Positions 451-8,416 of a stretch of DNA of 32,000 bases are shown here, piece after piece. The translations under genes were made by a program, and so were the position numbers. Location: contig NC_003902.1 in the NCBI RefSeq assembly GCF_000007145.1, forward strand, positions 817,436 to 849,435, read 5' to 3'. Below the pieces are notes generated by a model. The model was not told where the DNA came from. It was given only the letters and a program-made list of their open reading frames with translations, and made no database searches. This DNA comes from Xanthomonas campestris pv. campestris str. ATCC 33913. Its GTDB lineage: Bacteria > Pseudomonadota > Gammaproteobacteria > Xanthomonadales > Xanthomonadaceae. How positions within the stretch are numbered: position 1 is the stretch's first letter; every line of letters starts with the position of its first letter.

Positions 451-527
451 TTTGTGATAAATCCGTGATGCGATAGTGTCCGGAACTGTGATACGGTTCT
501 CTTAGAAATGTGATCAAAGTCGATTGC
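451..527 (+). promoter_or_regulatory. array of five phased (T)GTGAT direct repeats in the low-GC spacer upstream of the polysaccharide cluster; candidate transcription-factor binding array
   Basis: GTGAT occurs at 454, 465, 488 and 510, with a GTGTC variant at 476. The spacings are 11, 11, 12 and 22 bp, about one helical turn. The proximal copy reads AAATGTGATCAAAGTCGATT, whose left half equals the CRP/Clp consensus half-site AAATGTGATC. This is the only AT-rich stretch between the GT2 stop (436) and the next start (566). Confidence 0.45.
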
Positions 528-565: not shown

Positions 566-1600
566 ATGTCCCTACAGAACGACCCGCGCTCGCGGGTACG
601 TCAGCCGTGCGCCACCCCCTCACGGTCCGGCTCGGTTGAGCGGGCGTCAGCGTGCAGCCAGCCCCAACGGCGTCCCCTCCAGCGGGCGGCCATGTCACTG
701 CTTGCGGTGGGTTGCCTGATCGCCGCGCTGCCCGACACTGCCATGGCCGGTGCCTGGACCCAGCCGCAAGGCGACACTCTGGTGATCGTCAAGGCGCTGC
801 ATAGCGATGGACGCGGTTGGTTCGATGACAGCCATCACCGCACCACCTTCGGTGATGGACAGCAGTTCGATGGCAACGGGCGTAGCCGCCAGGACCAGCT
901 CAATGTCTACGTCGAGCACGGCCTGACTGACCAACTGAGCGTCATCGGCAACTTCTATTTCACCGACGTGGGTTTCAGCAATCACGGCGGAGACGGCCGC
1001 ACCCGCGCCAGCACCACCGGCTTCGCCGATCAGGAAATCGGCCTGCGCTACGCGCTGCCGAGTGCGCAGGACGATGTCTGGCGCAGTTCAGTGCAGGCAC
1101 TGGTGAGCATCCCAGCCTATGGCCGCAGCAAGACCTACCACCCGAACACCCCTGGTGCGAATTCCGACCCGGCCTTGGGATTGGGTGACTATGGTCTGGA
1201 GTTGCGCTACAGCCGCGGGCGTGGATACACGCTGGGTGGGCGCAATGGCTATGTTGATCTCGGCGGTGCGGTGCGTCTGCGCGGCAGTGCCGCCTCCGAC
1301 GAACTGCGGGTGGATGCCTCCACTGGCCTGAGTCTGACCCCCAGCTGGCTAGTGCTTGGCGAACTCAACGTGATCCAGGGCTTGGGCAACGGGCGTAACA
1401 ACTTCGACGTGCCCGGCTCTGCTGGTGGCGTCAGTTTCGTCGCCACCGGCACCAACTACGACCTCACCAAGCTGCAGCTGTCCACGCTGTATACCGCCCC
1501 CGGTGGTAGCCAGTGGCAGGTGGGCTACCAGCAGCCAGTGATGGGCCGCAATACCGGTGCTGCCGGCGGGCCATTCGTGGCCGCCTGGTGGCGGTTCTAG
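566..1600 (+). CDS. outer-membrane beta-barrel protein (putative polysaccharide export porin)
   Basis: The hydrophobic signal core and cleavage site are MSLLAVGCLIAALPDTAMA/GAW. The sequence has alternating beta-strand patterns and ends in WWRF, a C-terminal aromatic OMP signature. ATG 566 has AGGAAA 6 nt upstream and gives a positively charged n-region. ATG 692 is an alternative start. ATG 524 is unlikely. Confidence 0.65.
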   Translation: MSLQNDPRSRVRQPCATPSRSGSVERASACSQPQRRPLQRAAMSLLAVGCLIAALPDTAMAGAWTQPQGDTLVIVKALHSDGRGWFDDSHHRTTFGDGQQFDGNGRSRQDQLNVYVEHGLTDQLSVIGNFYFTDVGFSNHGGDGRTRASTTGFADQEIGLRYALPSAQDDVWRSSVQALVSIPAYGRSKTYHPNTPGANSDPALGLGDYGLELRYSRGRGYTLGGRNGYVDLGGAVRLRGSAASDELRVDASTGLSLTPSWLVLGELNVIQGLGNGRNNFDVPGSAGGVSFVATGTNYDLTKLQLSTLYTAPGGSQWQVGYQQPVMGRNTGAAGGPFVAAWWRF

Positions 1601-1613
1601 GGTAGGGCCGACA

Positions 1614-3521
1614 ATGACGGTCACCTGCGAAATGGACGCGCTGGGACGGGCGCCGGACATCGGCCGCGAACGCGGCTTGTTGGGGCGTTCGCTGGTGTCT
1701 GCCGGCGTCATCACCGACGAGCAACTGCGCGCCGCGCTTGCCTTGCAGCAACGCTGGAATTCGCGCCTGGGCGATGTGATCCTGGCCCAGCGCGGCGTGC
1801 CGGCGCAGCGGTTCTACGCCATCGTGGCCGCGCACTTCGGGCTGCAGTTCGTCGACCTGGTGCAACAGCCGCCGGACCCCGAGCTGCTCACCGCCACCGA
1901 CCTGGATGTGTATGCGCAGCGGCTGATCCTGCCGTGGCGGCGCGAGGACGGTGTGCTGGTGCTGGCCGTGGCCGACCCGGACCCGGCGCTGTTCGCCTGG
2001 GCGCGCGAGCATTACGGGGCGCAGGTGCGCTTCGTCGGCACTGCCAAGTTCGACATCATCTGGAGCCTGCAGCGCTACGCCGACGAGCAGCTCACCGACA
2101 ATGCGCTGAACCTGCTGGCCGCACACGCGCCTACCTATTCCGCACGCCAGGTGGTCACCCGCGGGCAGAAGTTCACCTTGTGGGCGATTGCCGCGGTGCT
2201 GGTGGCGGCGATCGCGGCGTTCCCCATCATTACGCTGATCACCATCAATGTGCTGGTGGCGTTGGGCTTTCTGGCGACCTTCGGCCTGAAGTTGCTGCTG
2301 GTGTGGTTCGGCTCGCGCCACCGCATCGACATCAAGGTCACCGAAGACGAAGTGGCTGCGCTGCGCGATGACGACCTGCCGGTCTATACCGTGCTGGTGC
2401 CGATGTACAAGGAGCCGGAAGTCCTGCCGATCCTGGCCAATGCGCTGCGCAAGCTGGATTACCCGATCAGCAAGCTCGACGTGAAACTGGTGCTGGAAGC
2501 CGACGATTTCGACACCATCGAAGCGGCCAAGAAACTCGGCCTGGAAGCGTTCTTCGAAATCATCCGGGTGCCGCCGTCGCAGCCCAAGACCAAGCCCAAG
2601 GCCTGCAACTACGCGCTGCATTTTGCGCGCGGCGAACTGCTCACCATCTACGACGCCGAAGACAAGCCCGAGCCGGATCAGCTCAAGCGCGTGGTGGCTG
2701 CGTTCCGCAAGGCGGAAAAAGACGTGGTGTGCATCCAGGCGCGCTTGAACTACTACAACGCCGACGAAAACTGGCTGACGCGGATGTTCACGCTGGAGTA
2801 CACGCTCTGGTTCGACTTCTACCTGCCGGCGCTGGAATACCTGCGCATTCCGATTCCGCTGGGCGGCACCTCCAATCACTTCCGGCTGGACGTGTTGCGG
2901 CAGGTGCGCGCGTGGGACCCGTACAACGTCACCGAAGACGCTGACCTTGGCGTGCGGCTGATCCAGAACGGCTACCGCGTCAACGTGGTCAATTCCACCA
3001 CGTTCGAAGAAGCCAACGTCAGCATCCCCAACTGGATCCGGCAGCGTTCGCGCTGGCTCAAGGGCTACATGCAGACCTGGCTGGTGCACATGCGCGACCC
3101 GGTGCATCTGTACCGCAGCACCGGGTTCAAGGGGTTTTGGGGCTTTCAGTTCTTCATTGGCGGTAATTTTTTCATCGCACTGGGTGTGCCGGTGATGTGG
3201 ACGCTGTGCCTGATCAGCATGCTGAGCGGTGCACGCATATTTGATGCGACCTTTCCACCGTGGCTGGCCACGATCTCGCTGGTCAATCTGCTGTTGGCCA
3301 ACGCGTTCTTTATCTACGTCACGCTGGTGGCCGCGTTCAAGCGCGACTACTTCAAGCTCGCGCCGTATGCGCTGACGGTGCCGTTCTATTGGTTGCTGCA
3401 GTCGATCGCGGCCTACAAGGGTCTGTGGCAGTTGATCCGCAATCCGTTCTACTGGGAGAAGACCACGCATGGCATCAGCAAGCATTCCGAACAAGAGCGC
3501 CGCGCCGCACTCGAAGAGTGA
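1614..3521 (+). CDS. membrane-bound processive family-2 glycosyltransferase (polysaccharide synthase) with an N-terminal MshEN/T2SSE_N c-di-GMP-binding domain
   Basis: N-terminus: LLGRSLVSAGVITDEQLRAALALQ, then a 5-aa spacer, then RLGDVILAQRGVPAQRFYAIVAAHFGLQFVDL. This is the MshEN tandem-motif layout. TM helices follow (FTLWAIAAVLVAAIAAFPIITLITINVLVALGFL). The GT2 motifs are VLVPMYKEPE, LEADD, YDAEDKPEPD and QRSRW (3042..3056). More TM helices lie at the C-terminus. ATG 1614 lies just after the upstream stop at 1600. The start at 1557 in the ORF track would overlap the upstream gene. Confidence 0.88.
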   Translation: MTVTCEMDALGRAPDIGRERGLLGRSLVSAGVITDEQLRAALALQQRWNSRLGDVILAQRGVPAQRFYAIVAAHFGLQFVDLVQQPPDPELLTATDLDVYAQRLILPWRREDGVLVLAVADPDPALFAWAREHYGAQVRFVGTAKFDIIWSLQRYADEQLTDNALNLLAAHAPTYSARQVVTRGQKFTLWAIAAVLVAAIAAFPIITLITINVLVALGFLATFGLKLLLVWFGSRHRIDIKVTEDEVAALRDDDLPVYTVLVPMYKEPEVLPILANALRKLDYPISKLDVKLVLEADDFDTIEAAKKLGLEAFFEIIRVPPSQPKTKPKACNYALHFARGELLTIYDAEDKPEPDQLKRVVAAFRKAEKDVVCIQARLNYYNADENWLTRMFTLEYTLWFDFYLPALEYLRIPIPLGGTSNHFRLDVLRQVRAWDPYNVTEDADLGVRLIQNGYRVNVVNSTTFEEANVSIPNWIRQRSRWLKGYMQTWLVHMRDPVHLYRSTGFKGFWGFQFFIGGNFFIALGVPVMWTLCLISMLSGARIFDATFPPWLATISLVNLLLANAFFIYVTLVAAFKRDYFKLAPYALTVPFYWLLQSIAAYKGLWQLIRNPFYWEKTTHGISKHSEQERRAALEE

Positions 3522-4812
3522 GCCGGGCGCCGTGCGCCGCGACAGCGGGCTGCCGGCGTTCCTGGTGGCGGTGGTGGCGTTGTCGCTGCTGAGCCAGCCG
3601 TTGCTGGTGCAGTCGCTGGGCAGCGCGGCACCGGCGGTGGCGCCCACGGTGGGGTTGCCGGCGACCGGCTTGCTGACCTGGCTGATCGATGTCGCTGCGC
3701 ACCGCTGGAACCTGCCGTTCCAGGTGTGGCCGTTCGTGGCAGTGGCCGCCAATGCGCTGTTCCTGTCGTTGCTATGGCGCGATCTGGCCGGCGTGTTCGG
3801 GCGCGGCTGGGCCAGCGGGTTGACCTTGCTGGTGGGCTGCAACCCGCTGTTCCTGCTGCCGATTGCCGCCGGTGGCAGCCAGGCAGTTGGCCTGCTTGCG
3901 TTCTACGGGTTGTGCCGCACGCTGCGCCGCCTGCAGGCGCCGGTGGAGGCCTTCACTTACCTGCGTATTGCCGGCTGGCTGTGCATCCTGTTGTGCCTGG
4001 ATCTGCAGACCCTGGCGCTATCGACGATGGTCGCGCCCTGGCTGCTGCTGGTGATGCCGCCGCAGATGCTGCGCAAGGCACCGGGCTCGTTCTATTTGGT
4101 GTGCTATCTGCCGTTCGTGTTCCTGGTCGGCATGTGGGCCTACATCAATCTGACCATGTTCAATGCGCCGTGGCCGACGTTGTCCAGCACCGCCGCCATT
4201 GCGCACCCGCTGCCGTTGCCGCTGCAGGCGCATGCCGACGGTTGGCTGCCGGCGCTGCGTTGGGGTGTGGCGGCCGTGGCGTGTTTCCCATTGCTGGCGT
4301 TGGTGATGCGCAGCCGCAGCGGCGTGTTGGCGCGCGGCGTGCTCGCCAGTGCGGGTACGGTGATCTGCGCGGCGGCGCTGTCGTTCGCGTTCGGCTGGGC
4401 CGGTTTCGATGCCTTGCTGCTGCTGTGGGTGCCGGCCGCATTGTTGCTGCGCGCGCTGCGTGCCGATCAACGTGGCCAGGCCGCCGGCCTGCTGCTGTTG
4501 GGCGTGCTGGGTGCGGCGTGGGTGCAGCCGCAGGGCTGGGGCCGCTGGATGCAGGCGCCATCGGCTGAACAGGCACAGGCGCACGGCGAGCCGATCGTGG
4601 TGACCGCGATGGCGGCGCTGCCGATGACGGACGGGCAGTCTGCTGTGGCAGCGCGCATTGCGCCGCCGGCCGGCGCTGATGCATTGCCCGCGGTCGCCAA
4701 GCCCGTTGCGGCGGCTGACGGGCGCACCGCACCCTCCGGCGCAACTGCATGCACGCAACCGTCGGCGCTGTCGTCGAATCAGGGGTCTGCCGCATGCTCA
4801 AGCACGTTCTAA
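3469..4812 (+). CDS. polytopic inner-membrane protein of unknown function with an Ala/Pro-rich C-terminal tail
   Basis: It has about 10 hydrophobic segments, for example FLVAVVALSLLSQPLL, VWPFVAVAANALFLSLLW, LTLLVGCNPLFLLPIAAGG and FYLVCYLPFVFLVGMWAYI. GGGAGAAG lies 8-10 nt upstream of ATG 3469, which overlaps the synthase gene by 53 nt. GTG 3532 is a non-overlapping alternative start. I recognise no family. Confidence 0.7.
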   Translation: MASASIPNKSAAPHSKSEPGAVRRDSGLPAFLVAVVALSLLSQPLLVQSLGSAAPAVAPTVGLPATGLLTWLIDVAAHRWNLPFQVWPFVAVAANALFLSLLWRDLAGVFGRGWASGLTLLVGCNPLFLLPIAAGGSQAVGLLAFYGLCRTLRRLQAPVEAFTYLRIAGWLCILLCLDLQTLALSTMVAPWLLLVMPPQMLRKAPGSFYLVCYLPFVFLVGMWAYINLTMFNAPWPTLSSTAAIAHPLPLPLQAHADGWLPALRWGVAAVACFPLLALVMRSRSGVLARGVLASAGTVICAAALSFAFGWAGFDALLLLWVPAALLLRALRADQRGQAAGLLLLGVLGAAWVQPQGWGRWMQAPSAEQAQAHGEPIVVTAMAALPMTDGQSAVAARIAPPAGADALPAVAKPVAAADGRTAPSGATACTQPSALSSNQGSAACSSTF

Positions 4813-5762
4813 ACGCCTGGCTAATGCTGGCGATCTGCATGCTTGCATCCGGCTGCAACGCGGCGCCATCGACCTGGATGGGCGCCAACGTCAAGGTGTC
4901 GGCCAACGCGCCGTGGGAAAGCGACGCGGCAGCGCAATCGTTGAATGCGCTGGCTGACACCGGTGCGAGCAAGGCCTTGTTGATCGCCTTCGCGTGGCAG
5001 GCAACGCCGCAGTCCAACGACCCGGTGCTGGGCAGCGACAGCAGCCTGGCCGCGATGCGCGCAGCGTTGCGGCAAAGCCACGCGGCCGGGCTGCAGCCCA
5101 CGCTCAAGGTGCATCTGTGGATTCCGGGGCATTGGGCCGGCGATGCTGCGCCGGCCGATCAGGCAGCGTGGTTTGCCGCCTACCAGCGCGCGCTGCTGCC
5201 GCTGGCGCGGCTTGCCGAAGACGAGCACGCCGAGGCGTTGGTGATCGGCACCGAGCTGCGCCAATTGCAGGACGCACCGCAATGGCCGGCCCTGGTGGCG
5301 GCGGTGCGCGCTGTCTACGGCGGCAAGCTGCTGTACGTTGCCGACGGCATGGAGCACGCGGAAACATTCCGCTACTGGTCGCTGTTCGATGCGGTGGGCA
5401 CCAGCCTGTATCCGCGTCTGTCTGAAGCGGCGGCCAAACGGCGCCCGGAGATGGAGGCCGCCGCGCAGCGCCTGCAGGACCTGGGCAAGCGCGTCGGTAA
5501 GCCGGTGTGGGTGGCCGAGCTGGGGCTGCGTTCGGCACGCGGCAGCCTGGCGGCGCCATGGGAGAGCCCGGAACAGCGCACCGCGGCGGTCGATACAAAA
5601 CTGCAATTGCAGGTGCTGCAACAGTGGCGCGCGGTGTTGCAGGCGCATGGCGTGGAAGGCATCGCGCTGTGGTGCTGGTACACCGACCCCAAGGCCGGCG
5701 GTCCCGGGGATAGCGACTTCACCGTGCAGGGCAAGCCGGCGCAACGAGTGCTGGCGGAGTAA
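4794..5762 (+). CDS. lipoprotein, clan GH-A-like (beta/alpha)8 glycoside hydrolase
   Basis: Signal peptide and lipobox: MLKHVLNAWLMLAICMLASG/C. Candidate acid/base Glu is in VIGTELRQL (gag 5253..5255). Candidate nucleophile Glu is in VWVAELG (gag 5517..5519), 88 aa later, as in GH-A enzymes. ATG 4794 overlaps the upstream gene by 19 nt. Confidence 0.7.
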   Translation: MLKHVLNAWLMLAICMLASGCNAAPSTWMGANVKVSANAPWESDAAAQSLNALADTGASKALLIAFAWQATPQSNDPVLGSDSSLAAMRAALRQSHAAGLQPTLKVHLWIPGHWAGDAAPADQAAWFAAYQRALLPLARLAEDEHAEALVIGTELRQLQDAPQWPALVAAVRAVYGGKLLYVADGMEHAETFRYWSLFDAVGTSLYPRLSEAAAKRRPEMEAAAQRLQDLGKRVGKPVWVAELGLRSARGSLAAPWESPEQRTAAVDTKLQLQVLQQWRAVLQAHGVEGIALWCWYTDPKAGGPGDSDFTVQGKPAQRVLAE

Positions 5763-7587: not shown

Positions 7588-8332
7588 ATGACCCAACTGC
7601 GCAACACCGCCTGGATCGAACTGCAGGCGCGCCAGGCGCGCTTGCTGGTCGAGCAGGGGCGGGCGGGCGAAGCGCAACAACTGCTGGCGCGCACTGAAGC
7701 CGCACTCGGCAATCAGCTCGACGACCCGCAACTGCTGGCAGCGCTGGCCGGTGCGCACGCCGACGCCGGCAACACCCCGCGCGCATTGACCCTGGCCCAG
7801 CGCCTGGTCACCGGCGCCACCCCGAGTACCGAAGACCGCCTGCAGTACGCTCAGCGGTTTCACCTACGGCCACGGTGGCTACTTCAGCCCGCAGGACTAT
7901 GTGGACCTGGGATTCCCGGTGCACTGGAGCGGCCGCAGCGCCGGGCAGACGGTGAACTGGAAGGTGGACGCCAACATCGGTGTGCAGCATTTCACCACCG
8001 AAGCCACGCCGTATTTCCCGACCGATCCCACCTTGCAGCAGGCCGCCTACGATGCCGCCTCGGTCGCGGCGTTGCTGGGCCTGGTCAACCGCTATACCGA
8101 TCCGGTGTACGCGGGCGAAAGCCGCACCGGCGTGTCCTACAACCTCAGTGGCGCGGCCGAATGGCAGGTGGCACCGCAGTTGTTCCTGGGCGGGCGCATG
8201 ACCTTCAACAACGCGCGCGACTACAACCAGTTCAGCAGCAATCTCTATCTGCGTTTCGTGCTGGATCGGCTGGGTTCCGCGCTGGGCCGCGCGCCGCAGG
8301 TACTGACTTCGCCGTACGCGGCGGATCACTGA
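7588..8332 (+). pseudogene. cellulose-synthase subunit C (BcsC)-like remnant: a TPR fragment joined out of frame to the C-terminal beta-barrel segment
   Basis: Frame 1 (7588..~7860) encodes TPR-like LLVEQGRAGEAQQLLARTEAALG...RALTLAQRLV. After about 7860 that frame becomes Arg/Pro/Gly-rich junk. Frame 2, from about 7856, reads GFTYGHGGYFSPQDYVDLGFPVHWSGR...LYLRFVLDRL, which is the BcsC C-terminal domain signature, and ends at 8332. The roughly 1000 aa expected between the two parts are absent. Confidence 0.6.
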
Positions 8333-8416
8333 GCCAACGCAGTGCAGTGCGCAAGGTGTGCGGTGATGCGTGCGCGCGCCGGGCACGTTGCACGCCTGGG
8401 CTGCAGCGGCAATGAA

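Follow-up and report, generated by a model that had tools for sequence, protein, structure and literature searches.

The xag genes are needed for biofilm formation or aggregation in Xanthomonas campestris pv. campestris (Xcc) and in X. oryzae pv. oryzicola, and they are strongly up-regulated in rpfG mutants. Their transcription responds to cyclic di-GMP (c-di-GMP), as Clp represses xagA and c-di-GMP releases Clp, so that xag transcription goes up (Lu et al. 2012, PMC3528676). According to Roelofs et al. (2015), xagABC is regulated by c-di-GMP at the transcriptional level, has no known receptor and "likely" encodes one. We have analysed a stretch of 32,000 nucleotides of Xcc ATCC 33913 (assembly GCF_000007145.1, contig NC_003902.1, positions 817,436 to 849,435 of the forward strand), hereafter the window, whose own numbering is used throughout, and we focus on xagB, which encodes a family 2 glycosyltransferase (GT2). 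Judged from its sequence, the segment 1677-1835 encodes the part of XagB that is predicted to bind c-di-GMP, namely the four-helix bundle MshEN_N, and XagB itself is an inner-membrane processive GT2 synthase.

An MshEN motif pair at the N-terminus of XagB

The initial annotation of this DNA had placed an MshEN-type motif pair at 1677-1835, and both its coordinates and its residues proved to be exact, this segment encoding residues 22-74 of a 635-amino acid open reading frame (Table 1). The first half-motif is a complete fit to the extended consensus of Neissner et al. (2024), (R/K/L)LGxx(L/V/I)(L/V/I)xxG(L/V/I)(L/V/I)xxxxLxxxLxxQ, which is defined as two tandem copies with a five-residue spacer. 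The second half-motif has Arg for Gly at position 10, although the residue directly after this Arg (R60) is a Gly, and His for Gln at position 24, together with conservative Phe and Val residues at two of the Leu positions. A chance match can be ruled out for the first half-motif, because the pattern used in the initial annotation has a per-position probability of ~6e-9 at the composition of XagB, was matched in 0 of 20,000 shuffles and is matched exactly once when the whole window is translated in all six frames.

Two curated profiles cover the domain. The NCBIfam model NF053729 ("c-di-GMP_motif, MshE-related"; 53 positions, curated cut-off 38 bits) matches residues 23-71 of XagB with 42.8 bits and an E value of 3.4e-11, and the Pfam model MshEN (PF05157) matches residues 75-160 with 53.6 bits, the cut-off being 23.1. 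Furthermore, we modelled residues 1-185 with AlphaFold2 (predicted local distance difference test, pLDDT, 84.9), and the best match of this model in the PDB was chain B of 5HTL (5htl_B), that is MshE with bound c-di-GMP, with a template modelling score of 0.78 and a root mean square deviation of 2.8 Å over 137 columns. The runner-up was the c-di-GMP-bound GSPII-B domain of PilF, while the non-binding N-domain of XpsE came lower, and X. citri PilB-N/PilZ complexes were also found among the matches. In the model, the N-terminus of XagB is predicted to be a four-helix bundle with an alpha/beta subdomain, superposable on ligand-bound MshE. The claim that this is an MshEN domain with the c-di-GMP motif, and not a generic T2SSE_N fold, is borne out by the motif-specific hidden Markov model (HMM), which scores above its curated cut-off, and by the rank of the ligand-bound structures over the non-binding one, and we have ruled out the generic fold on these two grounds. 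The N-terminus of XagB is a bona fide MshEN domain in which both half-motifs are present.

Register against MshE and departures from the motif

The profile of the XagB family can be aligned with Vibrio cholerae MshE (5HTL) over the 53 residues without any gap. In the first half-motif R9, L10, G11, G18 and Q32 of MshE correspond to L22, L23, G24, G31 and Q45 of XagB, and in the second one R38, G40, G47, L54, L58 and Q61 correspond to R51, G53, R60, F67, V71 and H74. In the MshEN_C subdomain, D108 of MshE, which contacts guanine, corresponds to D121 of XagB, and this Asp is invariant in 33 close relatives. The three departures named by the initial annotation (the first Arg replaced by Leu, a Gly by Arg and a Gln by His) are upheld by this gap-free register. 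We also considered a shift of the second half-motif by one residue, which would bring G61 to the Gly position, but it was rejected, as it would take F67 and V71 off the two Leu positions and H74 off that of Gln, and it is at odds with the gap-free HMM alignment to MshE.

The Leu at the first position of the motif has an experimental counterpart. The K167L variant of PilF GSPII-B, whose motif starts with LLG like that of XagB, binds c-di-GMP with a dissociation constant of 2 nM, its structure in complex with the ligand has been solved and the consensus has been widened to (R/K/L)LG according to this (Neissner et al. 2024, PMC11731258). The Leu of XagB is therefore not a defect and is experimentally favourable. 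As for the last position of the second half-motif, His is the commonest residue among 106 family representatives (43 of them, with Gln in 32). A further precedent for an imperfect motif is E. coli NfrB, which binds c-di-GMP even with a first half-motif that has Pro at position 1, Gln at position 10 and Arg at position 24, and with a spacer that is one residue shorter.

The spacer, which has been described as non-conserved in MshE, is constrained in the XagB family: the 33 close relatives show no change at W48 and a conservation of at least 90% at R47 and S50.

XagB relatives and retention of the motif

A scan of one genome per species revealed at least 600 genomes that encode XagB relatives. 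The best 80 of them belong to Gamma-, Beta-, Alpha- and Zetaproteobacteria, Acidobacteria, Nitrospinota, Aquificota and Synergistaceae, and also include Synechococcus, Bacteroidetes, Ignavibacterium, Sporomusaceae and one actinobacterium; together with two further loci (L002 and L003) they make up the set of 82 loci analysed here. At these loci the tblastn matches are single and colinear up to about residue 625, and in 76 of the 82 they begin at query residue 30 or before, that is within the N-terminal domain, so the N-terminal MshEN-GT2 fusion is old and general. As to how common this order is, a point raised by the initial annotation, it is at least as common as the opposite one, since NfrB homologues have been reported in 406 species beyond E. 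coli (Junkermeier & Hengge, PMC8669469) against the at least 600 species with the XagB order. A representative search with XagB as query gave no count of N- versus C-terminal domains, NfrB-type domains being too distant to appear in it.

The conservation of the motif was scored at 15 key positions in relaxed form. All 15 are present in Xcc XagB and in 20 of the 82 orthologues, which are spread across phyla, and at least 13 are found in 47. One or both half-motifs have lost their RLG core, with at most nine of the 15 positions kept, in a group of Bacteroidetes (L066, L067, L069, L074, L075, L078, L081 and L083), in sphingomonads (L019, L022, L030, L035, L042 and L045) and in Acetobacteraceae (L047, L050 and L053).

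Some relatives carry several MshEN domains in tandem before the GT2 domain: four in P0004 (1105 amino acids), three in P0102 from Beggiatoa alba (L003:8001-10781, 926 amino acids) and five in P0187 (1322 amino acids). Repeated MshEN domains were tabulated by Wang et al. (2016, PMC5013675) only for T2SSE ATPases.

Does the domain bind c-di-GMP?

Several points weigh against ligand binding by XagB. The protein departs from MshE at three key positions (R9L, G47R and Q61H), and the R9A mutation abolishes c-di-GMP binding in MshE; the Arg found at the R60 position is specific to the Xanthomonas clade, Gly being present in 78 of the 106 representatives, and the margin of the NF053729 match over its cut-off is only 4.8 bits. 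PilF GSPII-A, whose motif is near-consensus (in motif 1, His replaces the last Gln), does not bind, nor was binding rescued by restoring the full consensus (PMC12002112), so the motif alone is insufficient and the sequence of XagB makes binding likely, not established. Furthermore, at most nine of the 15 key positions are kept in 20 of the 82 orthologues, from Bacteroidetes, sphingomonads and Acetobacteraceae, in which Pro or Ser replaces the RLG cores. In about a quarter of the orthologues retrieved, then, the domain is kept and the motif is lost; apparently the domain has been preserved also in proteins that are unlikely to bind c-di-GMP, which suggests that it also has a ligand-independent role. 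Finally, our search of the literature found no measurement of c-di-GMP binding by a protein of the N-terminal MshEN-GT2 type, XagB included.

These points could be accounted for if XagB had a ligand-blind MshEN fold that works as a structural, oligomerisation or partner-binding module, for which the N-domain of XpsE (which binds XpsL) and that of X. citri PilB (which binds PilZ) are precedents. The N-domains of Xanthomonas XpsE and GspE were shown to lack binding of the nucleotide, and PilB-N/PilZ complexes, in which the c-di-GMP signal reaches PilB by way of another protein, are found among the structural matches; the non-binding PilF GSPII-A, the 20 orthologues without RLG cores and the Arg at the turn Gly of the Xanthomonas clade would also fit such a module. 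However, XpsE is off-motif at eight key positions against three in XagB, one of which (the Leu) is of proven favourable character, the motif-specific HMM is above its cut-off, all 15 relaxed positions and the MshEN_C Asp are retained, and the best fold matches are ligand-bound structures. We regard a ligand-blind domain, the main rival of our reading, as an unlikely explanation, albeit one with a real claim to attention, and binding of c-di-GMP by XagB as probable.

The synthase domain and the topology of XagB

A long helix connects the MshEN domain with a 51-residue hydrophobic stretch (residues 184-234 according to hydropathy), in which the model places two helices, 183-202 and 204-233, and the GT2 catalytic domain follows, with its signatures invariant in the 33 relatives (Table 1). 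The initial annotation had located the MshEN domain before the first transmembrane helices of a GT2 synthase, and hydropathy, Pfam and the model all agree with it. Because an even number of helices lies between the two soluble domains, both should be cytoplasmic.

The AlphaFold2 model of full-length XagB has a pLDDT of 85.1 and a predicted template modelling score of 0.86, with a pLDDT of 86-94 over residues 20-170. Its top Foldseek matches were BcsA, the Chlorella virus and Xenopus hyaluronan synthases, the archaeal mannosyltransferase PcManGT and Chs1, which are all membrane-embedded GT2 enzymes and mostly processive polysaccharide synthases. Both by its signatures and by its modelled fold, in which a GT-A domain sits against interface and transmembrane helices that would form a channel, XagB is of the kind of the processive membrane GT2 synthases (BcsA, hyaluronan synthase or chitin synthase type), polymerisation being predicted.

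The start of the coding sequence has to be considered here, since older records of this gene contain no sensor. The xagB frame is open from 1539, with an ATG at 1614 and a stop codon that ends at 3521. In AAM39994.1 (XCC0678) and AAY50598.1 (Xcc 8004), the start was set at the TTG at 2178, which corresponds to residue 189; these records have 447 amino acids, identical to the C-terminal 447 of XagB, and therefore lack the entire MshEN domain. If the TTG were the real start, the 188 N-terminal codons would be untranslated, which would leave the motif as a relic of the 5' leader, as these two annotations would imply. Against this, the frame is open well upstream, the domain is conserved in frame across many phyla (with the tblastn matches starting at or before residue 30 in 76 of the 82 loci), current annotations give 635 amino acids, the N-terminal domain is modelled with high confidence and the TTG would fall inside the first membrane helix. 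We consider an untranslated N-terminus hardly credible, and the 447-amino acid annotation has been rejected on account of the open frame, the cross-phylum conservation and the current 635-amino acid records.

A proposed c-di-GMP switch on XagB

If c-di-GMP binds to XagB as it does to MshE and PilF, one molecule would be sandwiched between the two half-motifs, with L22 and R51 capping the guanines, the clusters L23/L38/L42 and L52/F67/V71 stacking under them, and Q45, H74 and D121 making contacts with the ribose-phosphate and the base. Binding would then release or activate the synthase, and the xag system would be under two tiers of c-di-GMP control, one on transcription (through Clp) and another on the enzyme (through MshEN). 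That c-di-GMP binds the MshEN domain and activates the synthase post-translationally, on top of the transcriptional control by Clp, is the reading that we favour, if with somewhat less confidence than binding itself.

Regarding the product, xag-dependent aggregates are dispersed by the beta-1,4-mannanase ManA. The glycoside hydrolase family 113 (GH113), to which the product of the neighbouring gene xagD belongs, is named after beta-mannanases. This GH113 partner and the sensitivity to ManA together suggest a beta-mannan-like product. The proposal is made weaker by the indirectness of this inference, and also by the fact that activation, rather than inhibition, is an analogy drawn from BcsA, NfrB and the biofilm phenotype.

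Bound c-di-GMP could have another output, such as the recruitment of a specific diguanylate cyclase, a change in localisation or oligomeric state, or inhibition, instead of catalytic activation. NfrB works with its dedicated cyclase DgcJ by direct contact, and the presence of three to five tandem MshEN domains in relatives suggests something more than an on/off switch. However, we found no diguanylate cyclase gene beside the operon in the window, of the kind present at pseudomonad nfr operons, high c-di-GMP correlates with xag-dependent biofilm, and cellulose synthase, poly-N-acetylglucosamine (PGA) synthase and NfrB are all activated by c-di-GMP (PMC8669469). An output of this type appears improbable to us. 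The most complete form of the activation proposal is that XagB is the long-missing post-translational receptor of the xag system, its MshEN domain switching on a beta-mannan-like synthase by a mechanism unlike the PilZ gating of BcsA, and for this we would give about even chances.

If binding and activation are true, MshEN would be the missing enzyme-level c-di-GMP switch for the xag biofilm of Xanthomonas plant pathogens, and NfrB would gain a naturally permuted counterpart for studying the control of membrane synthases by MshEN domains. The same switch would be expected in several hundred species with XagB-type synthases and an intact motif, including stalk-forming iron oxidisers, and the relatives that have the domain without the motif would have escaped c-di-GMP control.

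What was already on record

Residues 14-92 of XCC0678 (X. campestris ATCC 33913) are part of an alignment in the supplement of Wang et al. (2016, PMC5013675), and as printed they are those of XagB save for two conservative positions. XCC0678 was placed in the column of proteins predicted to bind, with XpsE, PilB and GspE in the non-binding column; this assignment was made by motif conservation and not by experiment, and none of the proteins measured was a glycosyltransferase. Their Supplementary Table 4 lists both "Glyco_trans_2_3 - MshEN" (NfrB) and "MshEN - Glyco_trans_2_3", the latter with Rhodobacter sphaeroides Rsph17029_0522 as example and found in Actinobacteria, Firmicutes and Proteobacteria. 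The domain order and the predicted binding are thus already on record (Wang et al. 2016, Pfam and NCBIfam), and our sequence finding adds nothing to them.

In that work XCC0678 is called "NrfB", with no tie to the xag biofilm operon, and the accession cited (AAM39994) is the 447-amino acid record without an MshEN domain. In our literature search, no paper was found that links the xag operon with the MshEN domain it encodes. A 2026 paper on phage resistance in Roseobacter names xagB, but it was set aside as irrelevant, since the mutated gene is an NfrB homologue. The gap in the literature may be explained by the "NrfB" label and by the 447-amino acid GenBank records that lack the sensor. The xag literature and the MshEN census have dealt with one protein under different names.

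The xag locus

We identify the gene as xagB, the second one behind the Clp-repressed xagA promoter in the biofilm polysaccharide operon xagABC(D). The equation of XCC0678 with xagB rests on the Clp operator at 509-524, the A-B-C-D gene order, the identity of the protein with X. campestris records and a relative of 69% identity that is named "glycosyltransferase XagB" by the Joint Genome Institute. The exact 635-amino acid sequence is present on 177 contigs, and its annotation in X. campestris is that of a family 2 glycosyltransferase. The features of the locus are collected in Table 1.

Table 1. Features of the xag locus and of XagB (window coordinates)
Feature	Coordinates	Strand	Basis
Clp operator TGTGA-N6-TCGAT in the xagA promoter, TGTGATCAAAGTCGAT	509..524	+	sequence read; same form as published site
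xagA, putative outer-membrane protein; start uncertain (ATG 567 or ATG 693)	567..1600	+	open reading frame
xagB, 635 amino acids, MshEN - two-helix hairpin - GT2 synthase	1614..3521	+	open reading frame, Pfam, NCBIfam
MshEN half-motif 1, residues 22-45, LLGRSLVSAGVITDEQLRAALALQ	1677..1748	+	translation from ATG 1614; HMM; register
Spacer QRWNS, residues 46-50, five residues	1749..1763	+	translation from ATG 1614
MshEN half-motif 2, residues 51-74, RLGDVILAQRGVPAQRFYAIVAAH	1764..1835	+	translation from ATG 1614; register
MshEN_C (T2SSE_N-type) alpha/beta subdomain, residues 75-160, including D121	1836..2093	+	Pfam PF05157
Two-helix membrane hairpin, residues ~184-234, joining sensor to catalytic domain	2163..2315	+	hydropathy; model
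GT2 catalytic domain, residues 258-564	2385..3305	+	Pfam PF13632, PF13641, PF00535
DAED347-350	2652-2663	+	catalytic signature, invariant in 33 relatives
TED440-442	2931-2939	+	catalytic signature, invariant in 33 relatives
QRSRW477-481	3042-3056	+	catalytic signature, invariant in 33 relatives
C-terminal interface and transmembrane helices, residues ~496-609, presumed polysaccharide channel	3099..3440	+	hydropathy; model
xagC, polytopic membrane protein	3469..4812	+	many hydrophobic segments
xagD, GH113-family glycoside hydrolase, lipoprotein-like signal (...LASGC)	4749..5762	+	Pfam GH113, 109.9 bits

Lu et al. (2012, PMC3528676) mutated a Clp site of this form, TGTGA-N6-TCGAT, in the xagA promoter. 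A search of the canonical TGTGA-N6-TCACA with two mismatches gave three matches where 9.4 were expected, and the variant site was found by reading the promoter. This promoter region (440-525) is AT-rich within a GC-rich genome, and further TGTGAT or GTGAT half-sites lie in it at about 454, 465, 487 and 509, besides the Clp operator. Just 5' of it, on the same strand, there is the C-terminal part of another GT2 gene (17-436).

XagA has a signal-peptide-like stretch, LLAVGCLIAALPDTAMA, and ends in ...AAWWRF, and neither XagA nor XagC gave any Pfam or NCBIfam match. Among the 82 loci, xagA orthologues were found by tblastn only in the four Xanthomonas loci (L004-L007). A xagC homologue lies directly 3' of xagB in 15 of the 82 loci, and likewise in Halopseudomonas and Beggiatoa, where the complete xagB-xagC-GH113 order recurs; a GH113 gene is found at 6 kb or less from xagB in 35 loci from many lineages. 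As called, xagB and xagC overlap by 53 nucleotides (3469-3521) and xagC and xagD by 64 (4749-4812), and a comparable xagB/xagC overlap is present in X. cucurbitae (L004). These overlaps may reflect translational coupling or true start codons that lie later.

About 2 kb downstream of xagD, short open reading frames are found in two frames (7588-8415). One of them, 7901-8332, matches only the last third of the Pfam model BCSC_C (profile positions 230-335 of 336, E value 2.4e-25) and looks like a remnant of a bcsC-type gene for outer-membrane polysaccharide export. The rest of the window contains housekeeping genes, such as pncB, an ABC-F ATPase gene, glyA, rib genes, nusB, thiL and kdpAB.

Comparison with known systems

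In E. coli, the glycan that serves as receptor of phage N4 is made by NfrB, a GT2 synthase that is activated by c-di-GMP, binds it and works in direct contact with the cyclase DgcJ (Junkermeier & Hengge 2021, PMC8669469). Both NfrB and XagB are inner-membrane GT2 synthases with DxD, TED and QxxRW signatures, both have an MshEN domain fused across a two-helix hairpin and both are encoded in synthase-dependent secretion operons; in the two of them, this hairpin has both sensor and catalytic domain on its cytoplasmic side (PMC8669469 for NfrB). The initial annotation expected the signal to be coupled in a geometrically different way in XagB and NfrB, and this is a conjecture. The reversed domain order claimed in the initial annotation is confirmed by the alignment, in which residues 23-155 of XagB correspond to 490-622 of NfrB and residues 345-619 to 167-475, with 29% identity between the MshEN domains and 23% between the glycosyltransferase and C-terminal membrane regions. 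NfrB, in which GT2 precedes MshEN, has NfrA (with tetratricopeptide repeats and a beta-barrel) and YbcH as partners in an nfrBA-ybcH layout, whereas those of XagB are XagA (of no matching family), XagC and the GH113 protein XagD. Moreover, XagB scores 35.3 bits with the NCBIfam NfrB equivalog NF008411, whose cut-off is 1170, and only the MshEN part is matched (21-190 of XagB to 482-647 of NfrB). Orthology with NfrB was ruled out on the basis of this score, the reversed order and the different operon partners. Binding of c-di-GMP has been measured for NfrB and is predicted for XagB. Downstream of its complete MshEN domain, NfrB itself (E. coli K-12 nfrB, L001) has one more half-motif, a third one that stands by itself at residues 691-726 (LGKFLVTEGVISQETLDRVLTIQ...).

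With the N-domain of MshE (5HTL) and the GSPII-B domain of Thermus thermophilus PilF (8PDK and 8PE0), XagB shares the two-subdomain fold, the gap-free 53-residue register and the MshEN_C Asp, and it differs from them in the Arg at the second turn Gly and the His at the last Gln. The output also differs, as MshE and PilF are secretion and pilus ATPases and XagB is a membrane glycosyltransferase. BcsA is, like XagB, a processive membrane GT2 enzyme of the same fold with a fused cytoplasmic c-di-GMP sensor, encoded in an operon that is regulated by c-di-GMP at more than one level. However, the sensor of BcsA is a C-terminal PilZ domain and that of XagB an N-terminal MshEN domain, and the release of a gating loop, which is established for BcsA, is a hypothesis for XagB.

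Finally, Sfz2/Sfb2 of stalk-forming iron oxidisers have been proposed to take part in the synthesis of the stalk polysaccharide (Kato 2015; Koeksoy 2021, PMC8250860). The published analysis of Sfz2 sought RxxD and RxxxR motifs, and the N-terminal region was not called MshEN (PMC8250860). These proteins are XagB orthologues, with 54-57% identity in Mariprofundus (L016-L018 and L020), and all four Mariprofundus orthologues retain 14-15 of the 15 key MshEN positions. The xagB-xagC-GH113 order is complete in L016, L017 and L020, L018 being too short to show the downstream genes.

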